Below are positions 11,261 to 50,302 of a DNA stretch of 64,000 nt, in pieces (position 1 is the stretch's first letter; each line of letters starts with the position of its first letter). Under the pieces are notes generated by a model. That model worked only from the letters and a program-made list of their open reading frames with translations. It was not told the DNA's origin and did not search any database. A program made the translations under genes and the position numbers. The DNA is taken from NCBI RefSeq assembly GCF_056746865.1, contig NZ_CM163382.1, one strand, 5' to 3'.

Positions 11261-11938
11261 CTAAACCGTGATGCCCAGTAAACGTTCTGCATTGCGAAAC
11301 GCGATGGCCTCTTTTTCAGCCTTGTTGACGGGCAGACTGTCTATAAAGGTTTTTACACCGTCCAGGGTCTGATAGGGATAATCGACGGAGAACAGGATCC
11401 TTTCAGCACCCATTAACGCGTAGATAAACTGGAAGTGCGGCAGTGTTAGCATATGACGGGGTAACGTAAACGTGTTCCTGGAAGGTTCTCGTTAGCGTGC
11501 GTGACAGACCCGTTGCAGCCAGTGGCAGGCTGTCATCAAGACGCTGGAGCCAGAAGGGTAACATCTCACCCCAGTGGCCACTGATTACCTGCAAGTGGGG
11601 ATATTTATCAAATGCACCCGATAACATCAGCCGCAACAAATGGATCCCCGCTTCGTGATGCCAGCCCCAGGCAAACATAGAAAGCCTGGAGTTGACCTCT
11701 GCGCTGAAGCCCGTGAAGTAGGCCTGCTGTACGCTTTTAAGCGGTAACCCGGGATGAAGATAGAGTGGCACATTCAGTTTATTAAAGCGGGAAAGCAGGG
11801 AGTCGGTCAGGATTATGACCATCAGCGACGGTTTTCCCCCAGTCGCCAAGGAAAGGTGCCTGCTCAAGCGCAACAGGCATACACGCTCGCCCTAACTCGC
11901 TGTCGAGATAATTTTCTTCGAGGCAAATGATTTTCATA
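11261..11938 (-). pseudogene. amidohydrolase-family gene disrupted by at least two frameshifts
   Basis: Three consecutive reading frames carry pieces: MKIICLEENYL… (from ATG 11938), then …ISGHWGEMLPFWLQRLDDS…, then …FSVDYPYQTLDG…; metal-dependent amidohydrolase-like motifs but no single intact frame. Confidence 0.5.
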
Positions 11939-15503: not shown

Positions 15504-16826
15504 TTACTTAATACCGTATTCTCGGCTTAAGCGACGGTGCAACCTCAACACATTGGTTTCAACTGCCGTCACCACGTTCTCCGGAAAATCTGTCGGTAAT
15601 GAAGTCTTCACGTTATCCAGTGCTGCCGGAATCATTCTGGCAAAGTCACTCAGGATTTCATGCATCTGCACTTCCGGAAATTTCAGCACCTTTGCTGTCG
15701 CCAGAAAATGTCGCGGATAAATTTTATCGATTGCCGTTTTTTTGCCTTTGGATGCGTTAAGCCCCATTGCCAGTTTGAGATCGCTGATGTGTATTCCTGC
15801 GCCACCCAATACCGGAAATGCTGAAATGATGTCGTAAAATGGCGTGAGTCGATAACTGCCGCCAGCCTGAATAAATACGGAGAAGTTTTTTGCATGGCCA
15901 TCCGTTGCGCCAATCAACCACTGGAACACCTGAAACTTCATAAAATCATAGCGATCTTTCAGCGCCTCGCTGGACCCCATCAAAAAAGCCATGATCCGCG
16001 CGATGCCTGGGCCTCCATCTGATTCATATTTCACCGATGAAGGTAAACCGAATGTCTGACACATATCCTCCTGTGGCAAGCGAAGTAAAACCGTTCGCTC
16101 AGCATTCCAACGCCTGTCAAAACGTTCGACCGCTAACGCGCGCACATTTCCCGCTTTAATGATTTCTGCGTCCGGCACATTCAACCCAAGTTCTTTCGCC
16201 AGCAGCAGACAGTAATACTCATTATCAACGCTTTGGCTGAGATCGAGCGTCGCATTGGGCTGCCTGATTTCGCCAATCGGTAATTTAATGATGTGCGTCG
16301 TCGGCGTTATTCCTTTCGGAATGCACCAGTCATTGCCTATTCTGAGCAGCGCTGTCTTCTCCTGCGCGCCAGCAACCGAGATGCGAAAGTCATTTTCTTC
16401 TCTAATCATGCCCAGAGGGATATCTGCTTTATAAGCCGTTAATACTTCTTCAAGTCTGGCTTCAGTAAGCTTTTCCCATGCCATTATCGGATGCGTTACG
16501 GTTTCGTCTTCGGGTATTAACGTCACGGCACCAACGCTGTCTCGCCCTATTTCTGACAATAAATCAAACGGTTGTCTGGATTTGGCATGATAACGTTTAA
16601 CGATCCGGTCACGTACAATCGGGCTATCGGGTAACAGGTTATCGAAGAAGTTAAATACGGCATCAGAGGTGATATTCCCCCTCTGCAATGGCAGCGAAAG
16701 TGATAACGGTCTGGCATAACGGTTGGCTAACCACTCCGGTGCATACTTAAAGGTGTGCGCGCCATTGGCTAACTTCGTTAACTCGCCTACCCGCTGGTTG
16801 TTCATCCAAGTGACAAGTTTAGGCAT
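15504..16826 (-). CDS. hipA: HipA serine/threonine kinase toxin of the HipBA toxin-antitoxin module
   Basis: 440 aa from internal start MPKLVTWMNNQRVGEL (ORF track extends 19 codons further upstream); start overlaps hipB stop by 1 nt. Confidence 0.9.
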   Translation of the reverse strand: MPKLVTWMNNQRVGELTKLANGAHTFKYAPEWLANRYARPLSLSLPLQRGNITSDAVFNFFDNLLPDSPIVRDRIVKRYHAKSRQPFDLLSEIGRDSVGAVTLIPEDETVTHPIMAWEKLTEARLEEVLTAYKADIPLGMIREENDFRISVAGAQEKTALLRIGNDWCIPKGITPTTHIIKLPIGEIRQPNATLDLSQSVDNEYYCLLLAKELGLNVPDAEIIKAGNVRALAVERFDRRWNAERTVLLRLPQEDMCQTFGLPSSVKYESDGGPGIARIMAFLMGSSEALKDRYDFMKFQVFQWLIGATDGHAKNFSVFIQAGGSYRLTPFYDIISAFPVLGGAGIHISDLKLAMGLNASKGKKTAIDKIYPRHFLATAKVLKFPEVQMHEILSDFARMIPAALDNVKTSLPTDFPENVVTAVETNVLRLHRRLSREYGIK

Positions 16827-17092
16827 TACCACTCCAGATCTTGCTGTTCTGTTGATTCTGGCGAGGCATTTTTCGTGTCGCATAGCGTCATTGAGAGTTC
16901 AAGCGACTGTAAAATCTTAAAAAATGTCGTCAGCGTGGTATTGTCAGGATTGTTTTCGAAATTGGAAATTGTCGCCTGCTTAATACCGATTTTTTTCGCC
17001 AGCTCGCTCTGCGTCCAGCCATTTTGCTGACGAACCAGTTTCATTGCATTCGCTAATTGCGTTGGGCTATAGATCTTCTGAAAGCTCATCAT
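16826..17092 (-). CDS. hipB: HipB antitoxin / Xre-type repressor
   Basis: 88 aa from MMSFQKIYSPTQLANAMKLVRQQNGWTQSELAKKIG…; HTH motif; immediately upstream of hipA. Confidence 0.9.
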   Translation of the reverse strand: MMSFQKIYSPTQLANAMKLVRQQNGWTQSELAKKIGIKQATISNFENNPDNTTLTTFFKILQSLELSMTLCDTKNASPESTEQQDLEW

Positions 17093-17302: not shown

Positions 17303-20300
17303 TTACCAGCTATATTTCACACCCAGCATGCCCTGAGTATCGCTATAGCCTTTATCACCTAGTTGCACACCGACATTCCCCCACAGGCTAAGGTTGTTAT
17401 TTACTTTCGCCTCAACCCCGGTACGTACTTCACCGAGATTACGCGCACCATCACGGCTTACGGTTTGACCATTCATCTTCACGGCGTAGACTTTGCTGTT
17501 GTTGATCCAGTTCGCTTCAATGTAAGGCTGGAACTCACGCTGTTTACCATTGTCACGCTGGTGATGACTGTTCAGGTAGGTTTTCACCCCAAGTCGCGTT
17601 TGCACGTTTCCGTCACCTTCCGTTTCAATGCGTGTTCCGTCCTTCCGGATATGGTCAGAATCTTTCACACCCATCCAGGTGATTTGCACCTGTGGCTGGA
17701 CGTACCAGGTATTCAGCGTCCCTTCGCTGCCGCTAAATGTTCCCGCTTCAAAGGTATACCCACCCTCAACAGAGGCCGTCACACCGCGAGAATCATAGTC
17801 GTCAGCAGAACGGTTATCGGAACTGACGCTGTTATCAAACCAGTTATACAGCGCCCAGCTGTCAACATAAGCGCCGGTCTTATTCGCATCGTTCTGATAC
17901 CAGGTCGCGTAAATCCCAGCGCTGTACCCGCTGATGCGCCCATCCGATTTATAACCCACACGATTACTCTGAGTATTACTGTGCTGATTGGCATAGCCTG
18001 CCATGACGCCGAGATGCCAGCGATCCTGCGCGTTGCTACTCCACTGCGCCAAATCGCCGCCTAGCTGCAATACATAGCGGTTAGCCTGAGTATTTAGCTG
18101 ACCGTCACCGGCCCTTGAACGTTCGTGCCCTCCGACATGACGCATCCACATACTGCTTGCCGAACCCTGAGAATGCAGTGAATCTGTATACTGCGGCTCA
18201 CCCAGACGGTCGTGTAAACGATGGCTAAACAGCGAGTTGGCTGCGGCAATGTTGCTGATATAGCTTCCGGCCTCCGGGCGATAAACTGATGGGCCTTCCG
18301 GATCCACAACAGGAGGATTATTGATGGGATCGGGTGTATCCGCTGGCGTTACGCCGTCCCATTTACTGGTCAGATACCAGTTTTTCTCGTCATTCCCCTT
18401 CCCTTTAGCCAGCGTGTAGACGTAAGCCCCAGCTTCGACAGTTCCGGTGGTCAGCGCGAAGTTACCTGCAGAATTACCGCCGACCTCAATGAGTTCAATA
18501 CCGTTGACAGTTTGTGCACCGACGCCGCCAATGTTATCAACCCGAACGCGAGTATTCCCTTGGGTATCGCCTTTCACGTTCATCTTATCGGTGGGCGAAT
18601 TATCGCCGCCCAGCGTCGCGTTGAACGTCATCAGGCCATTGTTTCCGGTATAGTTACCGTTAACGGTCAGTACATTCCCCGGTTTTCCTCCTTCGCTGTT
18701 CATTTGAACCGTGCCACCATTCTCCAGGTTACCGCCGACAGTGGTTTTAGCGACACGCAGTGTCCCCCCTGGCATAACGTTCACATCACCTGCAGTGGTG
18801 ACATTTCCCGACATCACACCGCTGTTATGGATATTAATGTGTTGACTTGCCATATTAATGGCAGAGTCGGAACCGAAAGCAATTTCACCACCCACGATAT
18901 CCGTCGTACCCTGATACGCCGCGGAATCTTTGTTAAGAGTCAGGATCCCGGTCCCCAGTTTTGTCACATCACCGCTACCGCTGATACTGTGCGTCATCGC
19001 CCAGCTACGCTCAGTGGAGATGGTGAGCAGGCCATTATTGATAACGGAAGCATCACCCAGGTTTTTCTGCTCGTTGACGCTGAGCGCGCTGCCTGTATCA
19101 ATGTTGAATTGCCCCACAAAGCGGCTATTATCGCCATCCAGCTCTACATCTGTCCTGGCGGTTGCGCTCACGATACCCTTCCCGCTTATGCTATTACGCA
19201 GTTCGCCGGTCACATTTTTTAGCGTTAACAGACCGTCATTGGCAATATTTCCTCTGCCTAACCCCTGCGTATTATCGAGGCTGACTTCGGCATTTGGGCT
19301 AATGCTGGTTAACGCATTGTAGCGTGCATTAAGCCCCTCGATAGCCAGTGTTCCCCCTGTAACATTCAGGTTTCCGCCACCTGTCAGTTCGCCCTGACTG
19401 ATCCCACCTTTATTCACCGTCAGCGACCCCTCTTTAAACAAAACAGTCGAACCCATCAGCCCGGTGAATGTCTCTACCGTCTGGGCCGATCCATTAAGAT
19501 CGACGATGGCCGCGTTGCTGATGTTCAGTTCCCGAGTATTGCCCAGCGCGCCATCCGCATCGGTACGTAATGTCCCCATCTGAACGTAGGTTGCCCCCTG
19601 ATAGTCGTTCTGACCGTTAGAAAGCGAAACCTGTCGCACCGTATTGATTGCCAGATCCCCTTCACCACCGATTTTTGCCGACATATCGGCCGTTGCGCCA
19701 TAGGCTCCGCCATGTTCGGCTAACGTCAGCTTTTGCCCACCATGGATGTTCAGCGCTTTCAGCTCATAGTTAACGTACAAACCATCACCTGGTGCGGTCG
19801 TGAGGCGGAATCCATAATCACCCTCGGCGACCACTATTCCGTTTTGTGCAATGTGTAACGTTTTGTCCGCTTCCACCTCGTCGCCCTGTAAATCACGTAA
19901 CGTTAATGAGCCACCCGACCCAATAACCGTTTGCGCCTTCACCAGTTGAACGCCGACATGGCTATCATCGTGTTCCAGCAAATTGAGCGTCGTCAGAGGG
20001 TTATTCGCCATGGGATCATTCCACGGTTTAGGCACGTCGATAAGCACGTCGCCCGTCCCGTTTACCTGATAGTTACGGCCTTTCCAGGTGTAGTCACCCG
20101 CGCCGACAACCAGTGTATCGACGCTGATATATCCCTCCGCAAGCGTCGCAGCAGGTATATCCGTATCGAAAGTGAGCGTACCGCCATTCATGGCTAGTCC
20201 ACCAATGGATTGCTCTCCCACTTTTACCGATGTGGTATTTTCACTGTCAGACTGCAGCATCGCGTGAGTAAGCGCAGCGGTGTTGTCGCGTTCCAGTGCG

Positions 20301-22723
20301 AAGGTACTGTCTTTCAGTTGGGCAACACCGGCGAATTCAGTCCCTGCTGCATGGGTAAAGCCAAACATTTTGTCGGAGGATGACAGCTGCACTCGCATCA
20401 AGCCATCGCCTTTGAGCGCATTGGTCAGCGTGTAATCTCCCGCACTGTTCGTTGATGCGAGAATGTCGAGCGTACCGGGGCTTGCAATGGTTACTTCACT
20501 CGAACCCATGCCAGTTACCCCATCTGCCGTATGTGACGCAATGGTCAGGAGGCCGCCATTGACCAACGTTTTACCGCTATAAGTATTCCCTGCATTGAAC
20601 ACCGTATGGCCTGCATCATGCATCACTTTTCCGTCTTTATCGTCACCCGTAATCAGCATATCGACCTGGTAGCCGGCATCACTGTTATTGGTATGATTAA
20701 AGACAAAAACGCCTTCGCCAAGACCAAACTCCACTTTCGTCGCATTGGTGATAAATCCGGCATCTGCCGCCGCCTCACCGTGAGCAGCACCAATGTTTAG
20801 CGTTCCTACAGCAGGCGCAAAAACACCTAAGTAAACTTCTCCACCTTCGACATTCAGCGTACCGTTATTCGTCAGGGTTAACGTACCTGTGCCAGTCGTC
20901 CCTACGTTCATATTGAATGTTTCAAGAAGAGAGTTCTGCCCATCCACCCGCACGTCGCCCTTACTTTTGTCATTGAGAGCTATTTGTGTATCACGCGCTT
21001 TAACTATACCTCCGGTGGTAATATTCAGTTCACCCGCGCCTAATACACCGACCTGTAGTAATTGGGCGTTAGTAGATGATGTCTTTAAATTCCAGAGACT
21101 ATCCGTTGAAATATTAACTATCCCCTTACCGGAGGCATTTCCTCCGATAAATCCATAGCCCGTTGAATTAAGAGTGGCACCATTACTGACATTTACGATG
21201 CCGCTACCAAAATTACCGACATTGATACCTACAGTATCGAACGATGATGTCGCATCCATCAGGTTCAGTGTGCCGATACCGCTTGCTTTATCGCCCAAAA
21301 AAGTAATATTTTGCGATACGAACTTACCGCCATCGCTGATATTGAGGTTTCCGACACCCGCAACACCAATGGTGGTATAGACATTCTTATTGACCTCCCA
21401 CATCCCCCCCGTGGTGATGCTGACATTCCCGACGCCGGTTTCTCCATAACCGAGTGAGCTTCCTCCGTTGCTGACAACAAGCCCCTCATTACTGATATTC
21501 ATTTCGCCGTGGCCGTCATAACCAAGATTAGTTCCGAGATTAGTGATAACGGAGTTCTTATCCTTAATAGTAATGTTGCCTGTGCCTGTTTCTTTCATCC
21601 CCGCAGTGATAATTCCCGAATCTACTTTTCCTTCACTCGAGACATTAAGTTCACCGTCGCCAGCATCACCGATATAGATATAGCGGAAAGCTTCGCCCGT
21701 TCCGAGGAAATTCCAATGCCCTTTATCGGTCACGTTGACGACACCGTGGGACCCGTCCTGAACGCCCACAAATGAATATTCTTTGTTATTAATCAGTCCA
21801 TTATTGGAAATATTGACTTTGCCATTACCGAAATATCCATTATAGAGTCTGCGTACCGTGATAACAGAGTCTTGATCCTGCACATTCAGGGTTCCGATAC
21901 CGGTGGCATTGCCACCGATAATCGTATTTTCAGCCGTAATCAGCCCCCCCTCGCGAATAGTCGCTTCCCCCGTGCCTTGATTGCCAATTTGAAATTCAAT
22001 TGAGGAATCATTATTTTTTATTAGCCACTCGCCACCCTTTTCAACGACAACCTTACCATTGCTGTTCGCCTGATATCCTACAATGGCGACGATTGAACTC
22101 GTGACGTAACCCTTATCCGTAATATTTAATGAGCCTGTACCGTAACTCCCTATTTCGAATAATTCGGTCGTCAGAACCGAGTACTCTCCCTCAACATTGA
22201 CCGTCCCGACGCCTCCTGTCGAAGAACCTATCCTTAAATATCCTCCGTCAACGTGACCCTTCTGTTTAATATTCAGCGTCCCCGTACCGGATTGACCCAC
22301 ATTTAAAGGCCTTGCATTATTTCCGCTATCATACAATCGCCAGGTGCCACCCAAAACATTAACGGTACCCTCCGAGTCCTCATTAGCGCCAATGACGCTG
22401 GTAGTAATAGTGGTTAAGGAAGCATTACCGCCAGCCAAAATATTAAGCACTCCAGTGCCATACCACCCAACCAGGTAGGCATCGTAAGCAATATCAGTAT
22501 TAATATTGGTAATCTGACCATTATCAACTTCCAGACTCGCACCACACGCTGAACCGCTTAGTGCCAGCAAAACACCCAGCGTCAATCTACTGAATTTCGT
22601 TGTCAGTCCAGAGGATTTACGCAAATTAACCGTTGATGTTTTACCTACCCTGCGAGTTAATTCCGAGCAGGCCTGAAATACCTGTAGGGTGCAATTCCAT
22701 ATCACGCGATAGATTCTATTCAT
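17303..22723 (-). CDS. yneO: AIDA-I-type autotransporter adhesin, full length (K-12 counterpart is the yneO/ydeK pseudogene)
   Basis: 1806-aa ORF; extended signal peptide MNRIYRVIWNCTLQVF…; long Gly/Asn/Thr-rich repeat passenger; C-terminal beta-barrel-like region ending …GMLGVKYSW. Confidence 0.85.
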   Translation of the reverse strand: MNRIYRVIWNCTLQVFQACSELTRRVGKTSTVNLRKSSGLTTKFSRLTLGVLLALSGSACGASLEVDNGQITNINTDIAYDAYLVGWYGTGVLNILAGGNASLTTITTSVIGANEDSEGTVNVLGGTWRLYDSGNNARPLNVGQSGTGTLNIKQKGHVDGGYLRIGSSTGGVGTVNVEGEYSVLTTELFEIGSYGTGSLNITDKGYVTSSIVAIVGYQANSNGKVVVEKGGEWLIKNNDSSIEFQIGNQGTGEATIREGGLITAENTIIGGNATGIGTLNVQDQDSVITVRRLYNGYFGNGKVNISNNGLINNKEYSFVGVQDGSHGVVNVTDKGHWNFLGTGEAFRYIYIGDAGDGELNVSSEGKVDSGIITAGMKETGTGNITIKDKNSVITNLGTNLGYDGHGEMNISNEGLVVSNGGSSLGYGETGVGNVSITTGGMWEVNKNVYTTIGVAGVGNLNISDGGKFVSQNITFLGDKASGIGTLNLMDATSSFDTVGINVGNFGSGIVNVSNGATLNSTGYGFIGGNASGKGIVNISTDSLWNLKTSSTNAQLLQVGVLGAGELNITTGGIVKARDTQIALNDKSKGDVRVDGQNSLLETFNMNVGTTGTGTLTLTNNGTLNVEGGEVYLGVFAPAVGTLNIGAAHGEAAADAGFITNATKVEFGLGEGVFVFNHTNNSDAGYQVDMLITGDDKDGKVMHDAGHTVFNAGNTYSGKTLVNGGLLTIASHTADGVTGMGSSEVTIASPGTLDILASTNSAGDYTLTNALKGDGLMRVQLSSSDKMFGFTHAAGTEFAGVAQLKDSTFALERDNTAALTHAMLQSDSENTTSVKVGEQSIGGLAMNGGTLTFDTDIPAATLAEGYISVDTLVVGAGDYTWKGRNYQVNGTGDVLIDVPKPWNDPMANNPLTTLNLLEHDDSHVGVQLVKAQTVIGSGGSLTLRDLQGDEVEADKTLHIAQNGIVVAEGDYGFRLTTAPGDGLYVNYELKALNIHGGQKLTLAEHGGAYGATADMSAKIGGEGDLAINTVRQVSLSNGQNDYQGATYVQMGTLRTDADGALGNTRELNISNAAIVDLNGSAQTVETFTGLMGSTVLFKEGSLTVNKGGISQGELTGGGNLNVTGGTLAIEGLNARYNALTSISPNAEVSLDNTQGLGRGNIANDGLLTLKNVTGELRNSISGKGIVSATARTDVELDGDNSRFVGQFNIDTGSALSVNEQKNLGDASVINNGLLTISTERSWAMTHSISGSGDVTKLGTGILTLNKDSAAYQGTTDIVGGEIAFGSDSAINMASQHINIHNSGVMSGNVTTAGDVNVMPGGTLRVAKTTVGGNLENGGTVQMNSEGGKPGNVLTVNGNYTGNNGLMTFNATLGGDNSPTDKMNVKGDTQGNTRVRVDNIGGVGAQTVNGIELIEVGGNSAGNFALTTGTVEAGAYVYTLAKGKGNDEKNWYLTSKWDGVTPADTPDPINNPPVVDPEGPSVYRPEAGSYISNIAAANSLFSHRLHDRLGEPQYTDSLHSQGSASSMWMRHVGGHERSRAGDGQLNTQANRYVLQLGGDLAQWSSNAQDRWHLGVMAGYANQHSNTQSNRVGYKSDGRISGYSAGIYATWYQNDANKTGAYVDSWALYNWFDNSVSSDNRSADDYDSRGVTASVEGGYTFEAGTFSGSEGTLNTWYVQPQVQITWMGVKDSDHIRKDGTRIETEGDGNVQTRLGVKTYLNSHHQRDNGKQREFQPYIEANWINNSKVYAVKMNGQTVSRDGARNLGEVRTGVEAKVNNNLSLWGNVGVQLGDKGYSDTQGMLGVKYSW

Positions 22724-46447: not shown

Positions 46448-47635
46448 ATGAACTTATCCCTACGACGCTCTACCAGCGCCCTTCTTGCCTCGTCGTTGTT
46501 ATTAACCATCGGACGCGGCGCTACGCTGCCGTTTATGACCATTTACTTGAGTCGCCAGTACAGCCTGAGTGTCGATCTAATCGGTTATGCGATGACAATT
46601 GCGCTCACTATTGGCGTCGTTTTTAGCCTCGGTTTTGGTATCCTGGCGGATAAGTTCGACAAGAAACGCTATATGTTACTGGCAATTACCGCCTTCGCCT
46701 GCGGTTTTATTGCCATTCCTTTAGTGAATAACGTGACGCTGGTGGTGCTCTTTTTTGCCCTCATTAACTGCGCCTATTCCGTTTTTGCTACTGTGTTGAA
46801 AGCCTGGTTTGCCGACAATCTTTCGTCCACCAGCAAAACGAAAATCTTCTCAATCAACTACACCATGCTCAACATTGGCTGGACCATCGGTCCGCCGCTC
46901 GGCACGCTGTTGGTGATGCAGAGCATCAATCTGCCCTTTTGGCTGGCAGCTATCTGTTCCGCGTTTCCCATGCTTTTCATTCAAATTTGGGTAAAGCGCA
47001 GCGAGAAAATCATCGCCACGGAAACAGCCAGTGCCTGGTCGCCGAAAGTTTTATTACAAGATAAAGCACTGTTGTGGTTTACCTGCTCTGGCTTTCTGGC
47101 TTCTTTTGTTAGCGGCGCATTTGCTTCATGCATTTCACAATATGTGATGGTGATTGCTGATGGGGATTTTGCCGAAAAGGTGGTCGCGGTTGTTCTTCCA
47201 GTGAATGCTGCCATGGTAGTTACGTTGCAATATTCCGTGGGCCGGCGACTTAACCCGGCTAACATCCGCACGCTGATGACAGCAGGCACCCTCTGTTTCG
47301 TCATCGGTCTGGTCGGTTTTATTTTTTCCGGCAACAGCCTGCTATTGTGGGGTATGTCAGCTGCGGTATTTACTGTCGGTGAAATCATTTATGCGCCGGG
47401 CGAGTATATGTTGATTGACCATATTGCGCCGCCAGGAATGAAAGCCAGCTATTTTTCCGCTCAGTCTTTAGGCTGGCTTGGTGCGGCGATTAACCCATTA
47501 GTGAGTGGCATAGTGCTAACCAACCTGCCGCCTTCCTCGCTGTTTATCATCTTAGCGTTGGTGATCATTGCTGCGTGGGTGCTGATGTTAAAAGGAATTC
47601 GTGCAAGACCGTGGGGGCAGCCCGCGCTTTGTTGA
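46448..47635 (+). CDS. ydeE: MFS transporter
   Basis: 395-aa hydrophobic ORF. Confidence 0.85.
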   Translation: MNLSLRRSTSALLASSLLLTIGRGATLPFMTIYLSRQYSLSVDLIGYAMTIALTIGVVFSLGFGILADKFDKKRYMLLAITAFACGFIAIPLVNNVTLVVLFFALINCAYSVFATVLKAWFADNLSSTSKTKIFSINYTMLNIGWTIGPPLGTLLVMQSINLPFWLAAICSAFPMLFIQIWVKRSEKIIATETASAWSPKVLLQDKALLWFTCSGFLASFVSGAFASCISQYVMVIADGDFAEKVVAVVLPVNAAMVVTLQYSVGRRLNPANIRTLMTAGTLCFVIGLVGFIFSGNSLLLWGMSAAVFTVGEIIYAPGEYMLIDHIAPPGMKASYFSAQSLGWLGAAINPLVSGIVLTNLPPSSLFIILALVIIAAWVLMLKGIRARPWGQPALC

Positions 47636-47860
47636 TTTAAGTCGAACACAATAAAAATTTAATTCAGCCTTCGTTTAGGTTACCTCTGCTAATATCTTTC
47701 TCATTGAGATGAAAATTAAGGTAAGCGAGGAAACACACCACACCATAAACGGAGGCAAATAATGCTGGGTAGACTGGCCCCCTGAATCTCCAGACAACCA
47801 ATATCACTTAAATAAGTGATAGTCTTAATACTAGTTTTTAGACTAGTCATTGGAGAGCAG

Positions 47861-48226
47861 ATGATTGATGTCTTAGGACCGGAGAAACGCAGACGGCGTA
47901 CTACACAGGAAAAGATCGCTATTGTTCAGCAGAGTTTTGAACCGGGAATGACGGTCTCCCTTGTTGCCCGGCAACACGGTGTGGCAGCCAGCCAGTTATT
48001 TCTCTGGCGCAAGCAATACCAGGAGGGAAGTCTTACTGCTGTGGCCGCAGGAGAGCAGGTCGTTCCTGCCTCTGAACTTGCTGCTGCCATGAAGCAGATT
48101 AAAGAACTCCAGCGCCTGCTCGGCAAAAAAACGATGGAAAATGAACTCCTTAAAGAAGCCGTTGAATACGGGCGTGCAAAAAAGTGGATAGCGCACGCGC
48201 CCTTATTGCCCGGGGATGGGGAGTAA
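47861..48226 (+). CDS. insC: IS2 InsC (OrfA)
   Basis: 121 aa [26 protein letters not shown]… with GGAG RBS. Confidence 0.9.
48178..48184 (+). other. IS2 -1 programmed frameshift heptamer AAAAAAG
   Basis: A6G slippery sequence at the insC/insD overlap. Confidence 0.7.
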
Positions 48227-49089
48227 GCTTAGTCAGCCGTTGTCTCCGGGTGTCGCGTGCGCAGTTGCACGTCATTCTCAGACGAACCGATGACTGGAAA
48301 GATGGTCGCCGCAGCCGTCACTCAGATGATACGGATGTGCTTCTCCGTATACACCATGTTATCGGAGAGCTGCCCACGTATGGTTATCGTCGGGTATGGG
48401 CGCTGCTTCGCAGACAGGCCGAACTTGATGGTATGCCTGCGATCAATGCCAAACGTGTTTACCGGATCATGCGCCAGAATGCGCTGTTGCTTGAGCGAAA
48501 AACCGCTGTACCGCCATCGAAACGGGCACATACTGGCAAAGTGGCCGTGAAAGAAAGCAATCAACGATGGTGCTCTGACGGGTTCGAGTTCCGCTGTGAT
48601 AACGGAGAAAAACTGCGAGTCACGTTCGCGCTGGACTGCTGTGACCGTGAGGCACTGCACTGGGCAGTCACTACGGGCGGCTTCGACAGTGAAACAGTAC
48701 AGGACGTAATGCTGGGAGCGGTGGAACGCCGCTTCGGCAACGAGCTTCCGGCGTCTCCAGTAGAGTGGCTGACGGATAATGGTTCATGCTACCGGGCTAA
48801 TGAAACACGGCAGTTTGCCCGGATGTTGGGGCTTGAACCGAAGAACACGGCGGTGCGGAGTCCGGAGAGTAACGGCATAGCAGAGAGCTTCGTGAAAACG
48901 ATAAAGCGTGACTACATCAGTATCATGCCTAAACCAGACGGGTTAACGGCAGCAAAGAACCTTGCAGAGGCGTTCGAGCATTATAACGAATGGCATCCGC
49001 ATAGTGCACTGGGTTATCGCTCGCCACGGGAATATCTACGGCAGCGGGCCAGTAATGGGTTAAGTGATAACAGGTGTCTGGAAATATAG
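48184..49089 (+). CDS. insD: IS2 InsD (OrfB, DDE transposase)
   Basis: 301-aa ORF overlapping insC in the -1 frame. Confidence 0.9.
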
Positions 49090-49220
49090 GGGCAAATCCA
49101 CTGGGTAATATGAATGTTTTTATGGCCGTACTGGGAATAATTTTATTTTCTGGTTTTCTGGCCGCGTATTTCAGCCACAAATGGGATGACTAATGAACGG
49201 AGATAATCCCTCACCTAACC

Positions 49221-49260
49221 GGCCCCTTGTTACAGTTGTGTACAAGGGGCCTGATTTTTA
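49221..49260 (+). terminator. Rho-independent terminator downstream of mgtS
   Basis: 10-bp perfect stem GGCCCCTTGT / ACAAGGGGCC with 11-nt loop followed by TGATTTTTA. Confidence 0.75.
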
Positions 49261-49269
49261 TGACGGCAA

Positions 49270-49377
49270 AAAAAAACCGCCAGTAAACCGGCGGTGAATG
49301 CTTGCATGGATAGATTTGTGTTTTGCTTTTACGCTAACAGGCATTTTCCTGCACTGATAACGGATCGTTGACACAGT
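49270..49377 (-). ncRNA. mgrR: candidate PhoP-activated small RNA (MgrR-like)
   Basis: Minus-strand PhoP-box-type promoter (see 49402-49418) with -10-like AAAACT, about 100-nt transcript ending at minus-strand hairpin CCGCCGGTTTACTGGCGG + U9 (49268-49294); no long ORF. Confidence 0.45.
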
Positions 49378-49401
49378 AGCATCAGTTTTCTCAATGAATG
49401 T

Positions 49402-49418
49402 TAAACGGAGCTTAAACT
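49402..49418 (-). promoter_or_regulatory. PhoP-box-like direct repeat AGTTTA-N5-CGTTTA overlapping the dgcZ stop codon
   Basis: Read on minus strand; matches (T/G)GTTTA-N5-(T/G)GTTTA at 10 of 12 positions; a -10-like hexamer follows after 12 bp. Confidence 0.45.
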
Positions 49419-50302
49419 CGGTTAATCACATTTTGTTCGTCAATAAACATACAGCGATTTCTTCCGGTTTGCTTACCCTCATACATTGCCCGGTCCGCTC
49501 TTCCAATGACCACATCCAGAGGTTCTTCAGGAAATGCGCGACTCACACCTGCAGTCACGGTAATGTTGATATGCCCTTCAGAATGTGTGATGGCATGGTT
49601 ATCGACTAACTGGCAAATTCTGATACCTGCACGACATGCTTCTTCATCATTAGCCGCTTTGACAATAATGATAAATTCTTCGCCACCGTAGCGATAAACC
49701 GTTTCGTAATCGCGCGTCCAACTGGCTAAGTAAGTTGCCAGGGTGCGTAATACTACATCGCCGATTAAATGCCCGTAGGTATCATTAACCAATTTAAATC
49801 GGTCAATATCCAACAACATTAAATAAAGATTCAGAGGCTCAGCGTTGCGTAACTGATGATCAAAGGATTCATCAAGAACCCGACGACCCGGCAATCCCGT
49901 CAAAACATCCATATTGCTACGGATCGTCAGCAAATAAATTTTGTAATCGGTTAATGCCGCAGTAAAAGAAAGCAACCCTTCCTGAAAGGCGTCGAAATGC
50001 GCGTCCTGCCAGTGATTTTCAACAATAGCCAACATTAATTCCCGACCACAGTTATGCATATGTTGATGGGCAGAATCCATTAGCCGAACGTAAGGTAATT
50101 CATCGTTATCGAGTGGTCCCAGATGATCAATCCACCGACCAAACTGGCACAGTCCATAAGAATGGTTATCCGTTATTTCTGGCTTACTGGCATCTCTCGC
50201 GACCACGCTGTGAAACATACTCACCAGCCACTGGTAGTGGGCATCGATAGCCTTATTGAGATTTAACAAGATGGCATCAATTTCCGTTGTCTTCTTGATC
50301 AT
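49412..50302 (-). CDS. dgcZ: zinc-sensing diguanylate cyclase (CZB + GGDEF)
   Basis: 296 aa from MIKKTTEIDAILLNLNKAIDAHYQWLV…; GGEEF motif (…RYGGEEFIIIV…). Confidence 0.9.
   Translation of the reverse strand: MIKKTTEIDAILLNLNKAIDAHYQWLVSMFHSVVARDASKPEITDNHSYGLCQFGRWIDHLGPLDNDELPYVRLMDSAHQHMHNCGRELMLAIVENHWQDAHFDAFQEGLLSFTAALTDYKIYLLTIRSNMDVLTGLPGRRVLDESFDHQLRNAEPLNLYLMLLDIDRFKLVNDTYGHLIGDVVLRTLATYLASWTRDYETVYRYGGEEFIIIVKAANDEEACRAGIRICQLVDNHAITHSEGHINITVTAGVSRAFPEEPLDVVIGRADRAMYEGKQTGRNRCMFIDEQNVINRV

Follow-up and report, generated by a model that had tools for sequence, protein, structure and literature searches.

Insertional disruption of the small-protein gene mgtS by a complete IS2 element in Escherichia coli

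Introduction

MgrB is a negative-feedback inhibitor of PhoQ, the loss of mgrB is strongly selected by colistin, and the inactivation of that gene by insertion sequences in Klebsiella pneumoniae, with colistin resistance as the outcome, was reportedly described by Cannatelli et al. in 2014. The insertion described here resembles that case, in that an insertion sequence breaks a very short gene of the PhoPQ regulon that encodes a single-pass membrane peptide. It differs in the position of the gene product: unlike MgrB, MgtS acts further downstream, as an effector of MgtA and PitA, and K-12 deleted for mgtS has no growth phenotype in low Mg2+. Nothing points to selection of the mgtS::IS2 allele, or to a comparable selectable phenotype.

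A second relative is the IS2A copy in yaiX of E. coli K-12, which is an element of the same type (1,331 bp, with the same terminal repeats, open reading frame organisation and ‘A6G’ frameshift site), and which likewise splits a gene in two, with a 5-bp duplication at its borders (ATTAC at yaiX; CTGGG at mgtS). The two insertions differ in their target gene and in the isoform of the element, which are 95.8% identical to one another over 1,331 bp (56 substitutions, no indels), and the mgtS insertion is absent from 5,426 complete genomes. IS2 is also known from activating insertions upstream of ampC and acrEF, where the element has the same orientation as at mgtS and its right inverted repeat (IRR), bearing an outward -35 hexamer, faces the downstream gene (PMC9330008). 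Unlike those cases, the mgtS junction offers no -10 hexamer at the obligatory 17-bp spacing; furthermore, the element lies inside the coding sequence rather than upstream of it, which makes the activation of an intact gene impossible.

Finally, a natural loss of mgtS that also involves a mobile element is found in strain EC1, whose ydeE background is identical to that of strain 118UI. In EC1 the mgtS-mgtT-mgrR-dgcZ-ydeI segment and part of dcp have been deleted beside an IS1, whereas in the DNA described here the mgtS-mgtT unit has been split and nothing has been lost. Against this background, the mgtS::IS2 allele is a textbook case of insertional disruption by IS2, in a gene for which no such allele was recorded in the collections that were searched.

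Anatomy of the insertion

The window (the whole stretch of 64,000 nucleotides that was analysed, taken from contig NZ_CM163382.1 of assembly GCF_056746865.1) contains the conserved gene order ydeE, mgtS, mgtT, mgrR (on the opposite strand) and dgcZ, into which a complete IS2 has been inserted after nucleotide 8 of mgtS, within the third codon (Table 1). An initial annotation of the same DNA had described a 1331-bp element at this point, flanked by a 5-bp direct repeat, and both statements are borne out: coordinates, length and a full-length match to IS2 agree with one another, and a copy of CTGGG adjoins each end. The junctions read ...GGAGGCAAATAATGCTGGG / TAGACTGGCCCCCTGAATC...GGGGCAAATCCA / CTGGGTAATATGAATG... 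(with IS2 between the slashes) or, in a second rendering, ...ACGGAGGCAAATAATGCTGGG / TAGACTGGCCCCCTGAATCTCC ... GGGGCAAATCCA / CTGGGTAATATGAATGTTTTT.... The transposase genes of the element are co-oriented with mgtS, such that its left inverted repeat (IRL) adjoins the start of the gene and IRR adjoins the rest of it.

Table 1. Coordinates of the features at the split mgtS locus (positions are those of the window)
Feature	Position	Strand	Remarks
ydeE (MFS exporter)	46448..47635	+	395 aa, intact; same position annotated ydeE in M7424, 118UI and K-12
mgtS promoter region (putative)	47672..47695	+	PhoP-type half-site CGTTTA (47672-77), -10 TAATAT (47690-95)
CDS58	47709..47762	+	17-aa mini-ORF (MKIKVSEETHHTINGGK), intact; identical to the sequence in the PIRT-seq supplement (PMC12350097)
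mgtS 5' fragment	47762..47769	+	nt 1-8 (ATGCTGGG); native Shine-Dalgarno (SD) sequence GGAGG at 47751-55
Left target-site duplication	47765..47769		CTGGG, read from the sequence
IS2, complete	47770..49100	+	1,331 bp; matched in full, at 100%, by an IS3-family transposase element of p573-1
IRL	47770..47811	+	42 bp, TAGACTGG...CACTTAA; from inverted-repeat pair and IR alignment
insC / orfA (IS2 repressor)	47861..48226	+	121 aa; NCBIfam NF006928, IS2 TnpA, 276.4 bits (cut-off 229)
A6G programmed -1 frameshift site	48178..48184	+	A AAA AAG, in the correct frame
insD / orfB (catalytic part of transposase)	48184..49089	+	301 aa; NCBIfam NF006918, IS2 TnpB, 707.8 bits (cut-off 597)
IRR	49060..49100	+	41 bp, ...TGGAAATATAGGGGCAAATCCA; from inverted-repeat pair and IR alignment; carries candidate outward -35 TGGAAA (49079-84)
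Right target-site duplication	49101..49105		CTGGG, read from the sequence
mgtS 3' fragment	49106..49193	+	nt 9-96, codons 3 (part)-31 and stop; 1,336 bp from the start codon
mgtT	49193..49297	+	34 aa; ATG overlaps the mgtS stop (TAATG), out of frame
mgrR (sRNA gene)	49269..49366	-	intact; convergent with mgtS-mgtT, overlaps the mgtT 3' end

When the two fragments of the gene are joined (47762-47769 to 49106-49193), the resulting sequence, ATGCTGGGTAATATG...TAA, encodes the 31 amino acids MLGNMNVFMAVLGIILFSGFLAAYFSHKWDD followed by a stop codon. This product is identical to K-12 MgtS (b4599) and matches the NCBIfam equivalog model NF033842 (small_MgtS) over positions 1-31 of 31 (80.6 bits; cut-off 35); in the window itself the gene is split. 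The initial annotation had assigned the flanks to MgtS, and both the sequence (by identity with b4599) and the location (by the conserved synteny) proved to be correct.

A comparison with the empty site in other E. coli, which had been proposed as a check, gives a consistent answer at two scales. Over 800 bp, many E. coli chromosomes match, at 100% identity, the site that is reconstructed by removal of IS2 and one copy of CTGGG; they are annotated at this point as ydeE, mgtS, mgtT and dgcZ. Over the full length, the window with the insertion excised (62,664 bp) is co-linear with positions 2181690-2244353 of E. coli M7424, with 18 substitutions and 0 indels, while strain 118UI differs from the window by 2 SNPs across the 47.8 kb that precede the insertion. 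The IS2 copy is the only structural difference between the window and these nearest complete genomes, and the small number of differences from relatives that lack it suggests that the insertion event is probably recent. The combination of an exact target duplication, exact restoration of the empty site and a full-length match to a known insertion sequence is diagnostic of transposition, as opposed to chance.

Copies of insertion sequences are a classic source of misassembly, and the junction occurs in no other public sequence that was searched; both points might suggest that a repeated IS2 copy was mis-scaffolded into a gap at mgtS. Such an artefact would, however, create no target duplication, and here both junctions fall at the exact termini of IS2, flanked by a perfect 5-bp duplication, with an excised site that is 100% identical to the empty one. 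Even if the assembled element were a collapsed consensus of several copies, an insertion sequence of this kind would really interrupt the site. Misassembly is on these grounds a very improbable explanation of the allele.

The IS2 copy

The hallmarks of a functional IS2 that had been listed for this element (imperfect terminal repeats, insC, insD and the A6G site) can all be located, and its reading frames contain no stop codons. The arms of the terminal repeats align imperfectly, as TAGACTGG...CACTTAA and TGGATTTG...CACTTAA, and their form (5'-TAG...TTAA in IRL and TTAA...CCA-3' in IRR) agrees with that of published IS2 (PMC3299598). IRL is adjoined, just inside the left end, by the docking sequence for OrfA, TTAAATAAGT (47808-17), and by ‘PIRL’, an extended -10 promoter (TGAT from 47817); the layout of docking sequence, PIRL and ‘Pjunc’, together with the A6G window, follows the description in PMC3299598. 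The frameshift site lies in the correct frame for an OrfAB fusion, predicted to be 409 amino acids in length and uninterrupted.

Relative to K-12, the InsC protein is identical to InsC1, and the nucleotide differences within insC proper (upstream of its overlap with insD) are all silent; InsD carries 10 amino acid differences from InsD1 and no stop codons, and a single substitution relative to IS2A is found in IRR, at IS position 1305. From its sequence, the copy looks structurally intact. Because its reading frames and ends are intact and many near-identical copies occupy different sites, we infer that it would be competent for transposition, including the formation of minicircles and an active Pjunc.

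The same sequence comparisons indicate where the element might have come from. The copy is identical at 1,331 of 1,331 bp (100%) to one on p573-1, an IncHI2 plasmid; many others match it at 99.9%, and the matching elements are annotated ‘IS3 family transposase, programmed frameshift’. Near-identical copies (99.9-100%) are present on many plasmids as well as chromosomes, and in PLSDB the isoform occurs, at 99% identity or more, on at least 1,345 plasmid records, most of them of conjugative plasmids, from Escherichia, Klebsiella, Salmonella and others. Judged by sequence, the copy belongs to this plasmid-associated isoform and not to the K-12 type, and a plasmid origin for the chromosomal copy is plausible. 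No second copy of IS2 was found within the window.

The disrupted operon

The genes mgtS and mgtT form an operon that depends on PhoQP and responds to low Mg2+ by induction; PhoQ dependence is also reported for the sequence ahead of mgtS (PMC11429745). A further mini-ORF upstream of mgtS, CDS58, has been detected by PIRT-seq (PMC12350097). In the window all of these elements are recognisable. The half-site and -10 hexamer that had been proposed as the mgtS promoter are found as described, in a ydeE-mgtS intergenic region with a single difference from K-12 in 134 positions, and the CDS58 stop codon (TAA) overlaps the mgtS ATG. The promoter region remains joined to CDS58 and to the 8-nucleotide stump of mgtS, from whose ATG a reading frame of only 7 codons (MLGRLAP, then a stop) runs into IRL and ends at 47785. 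The claim that promoter, ribosome-binding site and start codon have been severed from the rest of mgtS by some 1.3 kb is thereby upheld.

The initial account was confined to mgtS. The unit that is disrupted is the operon CDS58-mgtS-mgtT, mgtT included: since mgtT shares an operon with mgtS, it has likewise been severed from the PhoQP-dependent promoter. Its product differs from the K-12 protein by one amino acid (K26 in place of E26).

The PhoP-regulated small RNA gene mgrR, on the other strand, is intact. It is identified by a match to Rfam RF01407 (STnc560) at 49400-49187 on the minus strand, with 281.1 bits against a gathering score of 55 (E = 2.3e-65), and has 1 mismatch to K-12; its terminator (49295-49276) and its PhoP box (AGTTTA-N5-CGTTTA, at about 49402-49418) are intact as well.

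Probable consequences for mgtS and mgtT expression

The following course of events would account for the allele. One E. coli lineage would have acquired IS2 through ordinary ‘copy-out/paste-in’ transposition, and CTGGG, within mgtS codons 2-3, would have been duplicated in the process. The PhoQP-activated CDS58-mgtS-mgtT unit would thereby have been divided, with the promoter, leader, CDS58, strong SD sequence and 8 nucleotides of mgtS to the left of IS2, and with codons 3-31 of mgtS and the whole of mgtT 1.3 kb downstream, behind the element. The allele would then be null or strongly hypomorphic, and mgtT would be without low-Mg2+ induction, while the mgrR response would be unaffected. Thus MgtS is most likely lost or strongly reduced, and not inducible by low Mg2+, with mgtT uncoupled from the response. 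We are confident of this explanation as a whole, in which a private IS2 transposition splits the operon, makes mgtS null or strongly hypomorphic, leaves mgtT uninduced and is close to neutral for the cell.

What expression might remain depends upon transcription through or out of the element, and upon the translation starts that are left; the 88 nucleotides of mgtS beyond IS2 would require another promoter and another start codon. A consensus scan for sigma-70-like promoters over 47400-49500 returned none on the plus strand, nor did a relaxed scan (at least 8 of 12 matches) over 48900-49125. At the same time, the plus strand inside IS2 showed no intrinsic terminator, so that transcripts begun at PIRL or at the PhoP promoter could run across the element and give residual expression at a low level. 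Two candidate starts could serve such a transcript: ATG 49110, which is Met5 of MgtS, lies where the initial annotation had placed it and would give 27 amino acids, and GTG 49074, inside IRR, which would give an in-frame fusion of 39. The shortened Met5 product, first suggested in that annotation, would keep the whole of the predicted transmembrane segment; it is possible, and its expression looks weak.

It might accordingly be argued that the allele is a hypomorph and not a null, in which read-through yields a functional, altered MgtS (27 or 39 amino acids) and MgtT at a low level that is largely independent of Mg2+. The co-orientation of IS2 and mgtS, the lack of a detected plus-strand intrinsic terminator between insD and the mgtS fragment, and the open frame that runs from GTG 49074 via IRR into mgtS are all compatible with such an outcome, as is the alignment of the 27-residue form to positions 5-31 of the MgtS model (NF033842) at 70 bits. 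Against it, both alternative starts are poorly served by SD pairing, with calculated energies of -3.7 kcal/mol at Met5 and -3.1 kcal/mol at GTG 49074, compared with -9.5 kcal/mol at the native start. The largely untranslated insD would, moreover, be expected to favour Rho-dependent polarity. PIRL, for its part, is described as weak and as repressed by OrfA (PMC3299598). Functional residual expression of this kind is unlikely.

A different possibility is that regulation has been rewired, through a hybrid promoter made up of the outward -35 hexamer of IRR and adjoining sequence, from which the mgtS fragment and mgtT would be expressed constitutively. IRR does abut the downstream fragment, a good -10-like hexamer (TAATAT) stands at 49106-11, and fusion promoters of IS2 are documented (PMC9330008). 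The -35 element of IRR, however, needs a spacer of 17 bp in order to function (PMC3299598), and when TGGAAA is taken as that element (a placement of our own, derived from the 17-bp spacer rule of Pjunc), the sequence found at that distance is TGGGTA, which is not a -10, and TAATAT is found at 21 bp. A fusion promoter of the ampC or acrEF type is therefore not formed. Both the consensus and the relaxed scans are without a plus-strand promoter at this point, and a transcript that began there would have almost no leader ahead of Met5. With TGGGTA at 17 bp and negative scans, the hybrid outward promoter was rejected as a candidate, and the rewiring that it would produce is very hard to credit.

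With loss or strong reduction of MgtS as the preferred reading, a phenotype may be predicted. MgtA, an importer of Mg2+, is protected from FtsH by MgtS, which is also believed to act as an inhibitor of PitA (PMC10710835); under Mg2+ limitation, MgtA would thus be less protected from FtsH and PitA would be uninhibited, and lower MgtA together with lower cytoplasmic Mg2+ is the predicted result. Deletions of mgtS and of mgtT in K-12 had no effect on growth in low Mg2+ (PMC11429745), and the insertion is therefore probably near-neutral.

Possible transcription of IS2 from the mgtS promoter

The insertion may also have consequences for the element itself. The intact PhoP-activated promoter of mgtS now fires into IRL and insC, and the IS2 transposase might therefore be inducible by PhoQ signals. 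Expression of the transposase, and hence the mobility of the element, would in that event respond to low Mg2+ or to other PhoQ signals in this strain, as an accidental ‘stress-coupled transposon’. A partial argument against this comes from RNA folding: the read-through leader is predicted to pair UCUCC of IRL (47787-91) with the SD sequence of insC (GGAGA, 47852-56); in the predicted fold of a transcript that starts inside the element, the same SD sequence lies in a loop. Such pairing would blunt the activation of insC by PhoP. Neither the leader fold (z-score -1.25) nor that of the IS2-mgtS junction (z-score -0.91) stands out significantly from shuffled sequence, and the folds carry little weight, as weak hints at most. 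Stress-coupled mobility is an improbable outcome.

Distribution of the allele

Interruption of mgtS is unusual, given that 5,407 of 5,426 complete RefSeq E. coli genomes (99.65%) carry, without a break, the 281-bp locus that runs from its promoter to the terminator. One of the exceptions was inspected, namely EC1, in which everything from mgtS into dcp has been lost.

The mgtS::IS2 allele is marked by the string GGCAAATAATGCTGGGTAGACTGGCCCCCTGAATC. The 400-bp left junction is covered to at least 80% in none of the 5,426 complete genomes, and a 35-nucleotide junction has no exact match among GTDB representative genomes or JGI metagenome contigs, collections that leave out draft E. coli and Shigella assemblies. 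An exact-protein look-up of the reading frames that span the junctions (39, 47, 44 and 83 amino acids) found none recorded as called genes, and no paper in the literature that was searched links mgtS to IS2. The allele is private to this strain among the collections searched.

Significance

In itself this is a minor finding, concerning a gene whose deletion in K-12 is reported to have no growth phenotype and an element whose hops are routine. It does carry a lesson for annotation, which is that very short genes are easily lost from view once they are split by an insertion sequence; three overlapping mini-ORFs are affected at this locus, and they would be invisible to a gene caller.

For the biology of the small proteins themselves, the value of the allele lies in its natural occurrence, the lineage being one that is most closely matched by isolates from humans. 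In effect, nature has supplied a knock-out of the small-protein operon mgtS-mgtT in which mgrR and CDS58 are intact, and the strain could be used to ask if MgtS and MgtT matter outside K-12.

The mgtS operon

The mini-ORFs CDS58, mgtS and mgtT follow one another in the window, each joined to the next by an identical TAATG stop/start overlap; because this overlap chains all three (see table), the arrangement suggests that translation is coupled along the operon. The IS2 element breaks the chain 7 nt past the first overlap.

Features of the window
Feature	Coordinates	Strand	Remarks
Amidohydrolase gene	11261-11937	minus	three short overlapping CDS fragments; read from the matching position in the annotation of co-linear M7424
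hipBA	15504-17092	minus	toxin-antitoxin pair
Autotransporter gene	17303-22723	minus	ECSE_1600 family, 1,806 aa, adjoining hipBA
CDS58	47709-47762		17 aa
mgtS	47762-(IS2)-49193		31 aa
mgtT	49193-49297		34 aa
Hairpin and TTTTT	49211-49249		within mgtT CDS
ydfJ (intact), then rspB-rspA-ynfA-ynfB-speG-ynfC	58274-64000		gene order as in M7424

Shortly 3' of the mgtS stop codon lies a strong hairpin rich in G+C (GGCCCCTTGT...ACAAGGGGCC) and, after it, a TTTTT run. This structure looks like the mgtS terminator, and read-through of it would be needed to produce mgtT mRNA. The Rfam model STnc560, which matches the convergent sRNA gene mgrR, also spans the hairpin on the opposite strand.

In the region shared by codon 26 of mgtT (49268-49270) and the 3' end of mgrR, the sole difference from K-12 is a Glu-to-Lys substitution (E26K) in MgtT, and in the tail of the mgrR terminator the base responsible is likewise the only mismatch. 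In RefSeq, the E26K variant is named 'hypothetical protein' rather than MgtT.

Related strains and neighboring genes

A separate and larger loss of the mgtS locus, independent of the IS2 insertion in the window, is found in E. coli EC1 (NZ_CP058574.1, 2465045-2472122), a urinary isolate whose YdeE protein is the same as that of strain 118UI. There, an IS1 directly follows the mgtS promoter region, and mgtS, mgtT, mgrR, dgcZ and ydeI are missing, together with the end of dcp.

In 118UI, ydfJ is truncated and prophage genes come next, whereas in the window ydfJ is intact and continues into rspB; the window's strain therefore lacks the 118UI prophage at this site. The broken amidohydrolase gene is probably a pseudogene common to the lineage, and hipBA and the adjoining autotransporter gene are ordinary and are present in relatives as well.

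An outward reading frame in IS2

At 49074 (IS2 position 1305, within the right terminal repeat, IRR), the window isoform has GTG versus ATG in the K-12 copy IS2A. In both, an ORF (MSGNIGANP...) runs outward across the IRR without a stop, so that IS2, when inserted in the matching frame, can give N-terminal fusions to the downstream gene.
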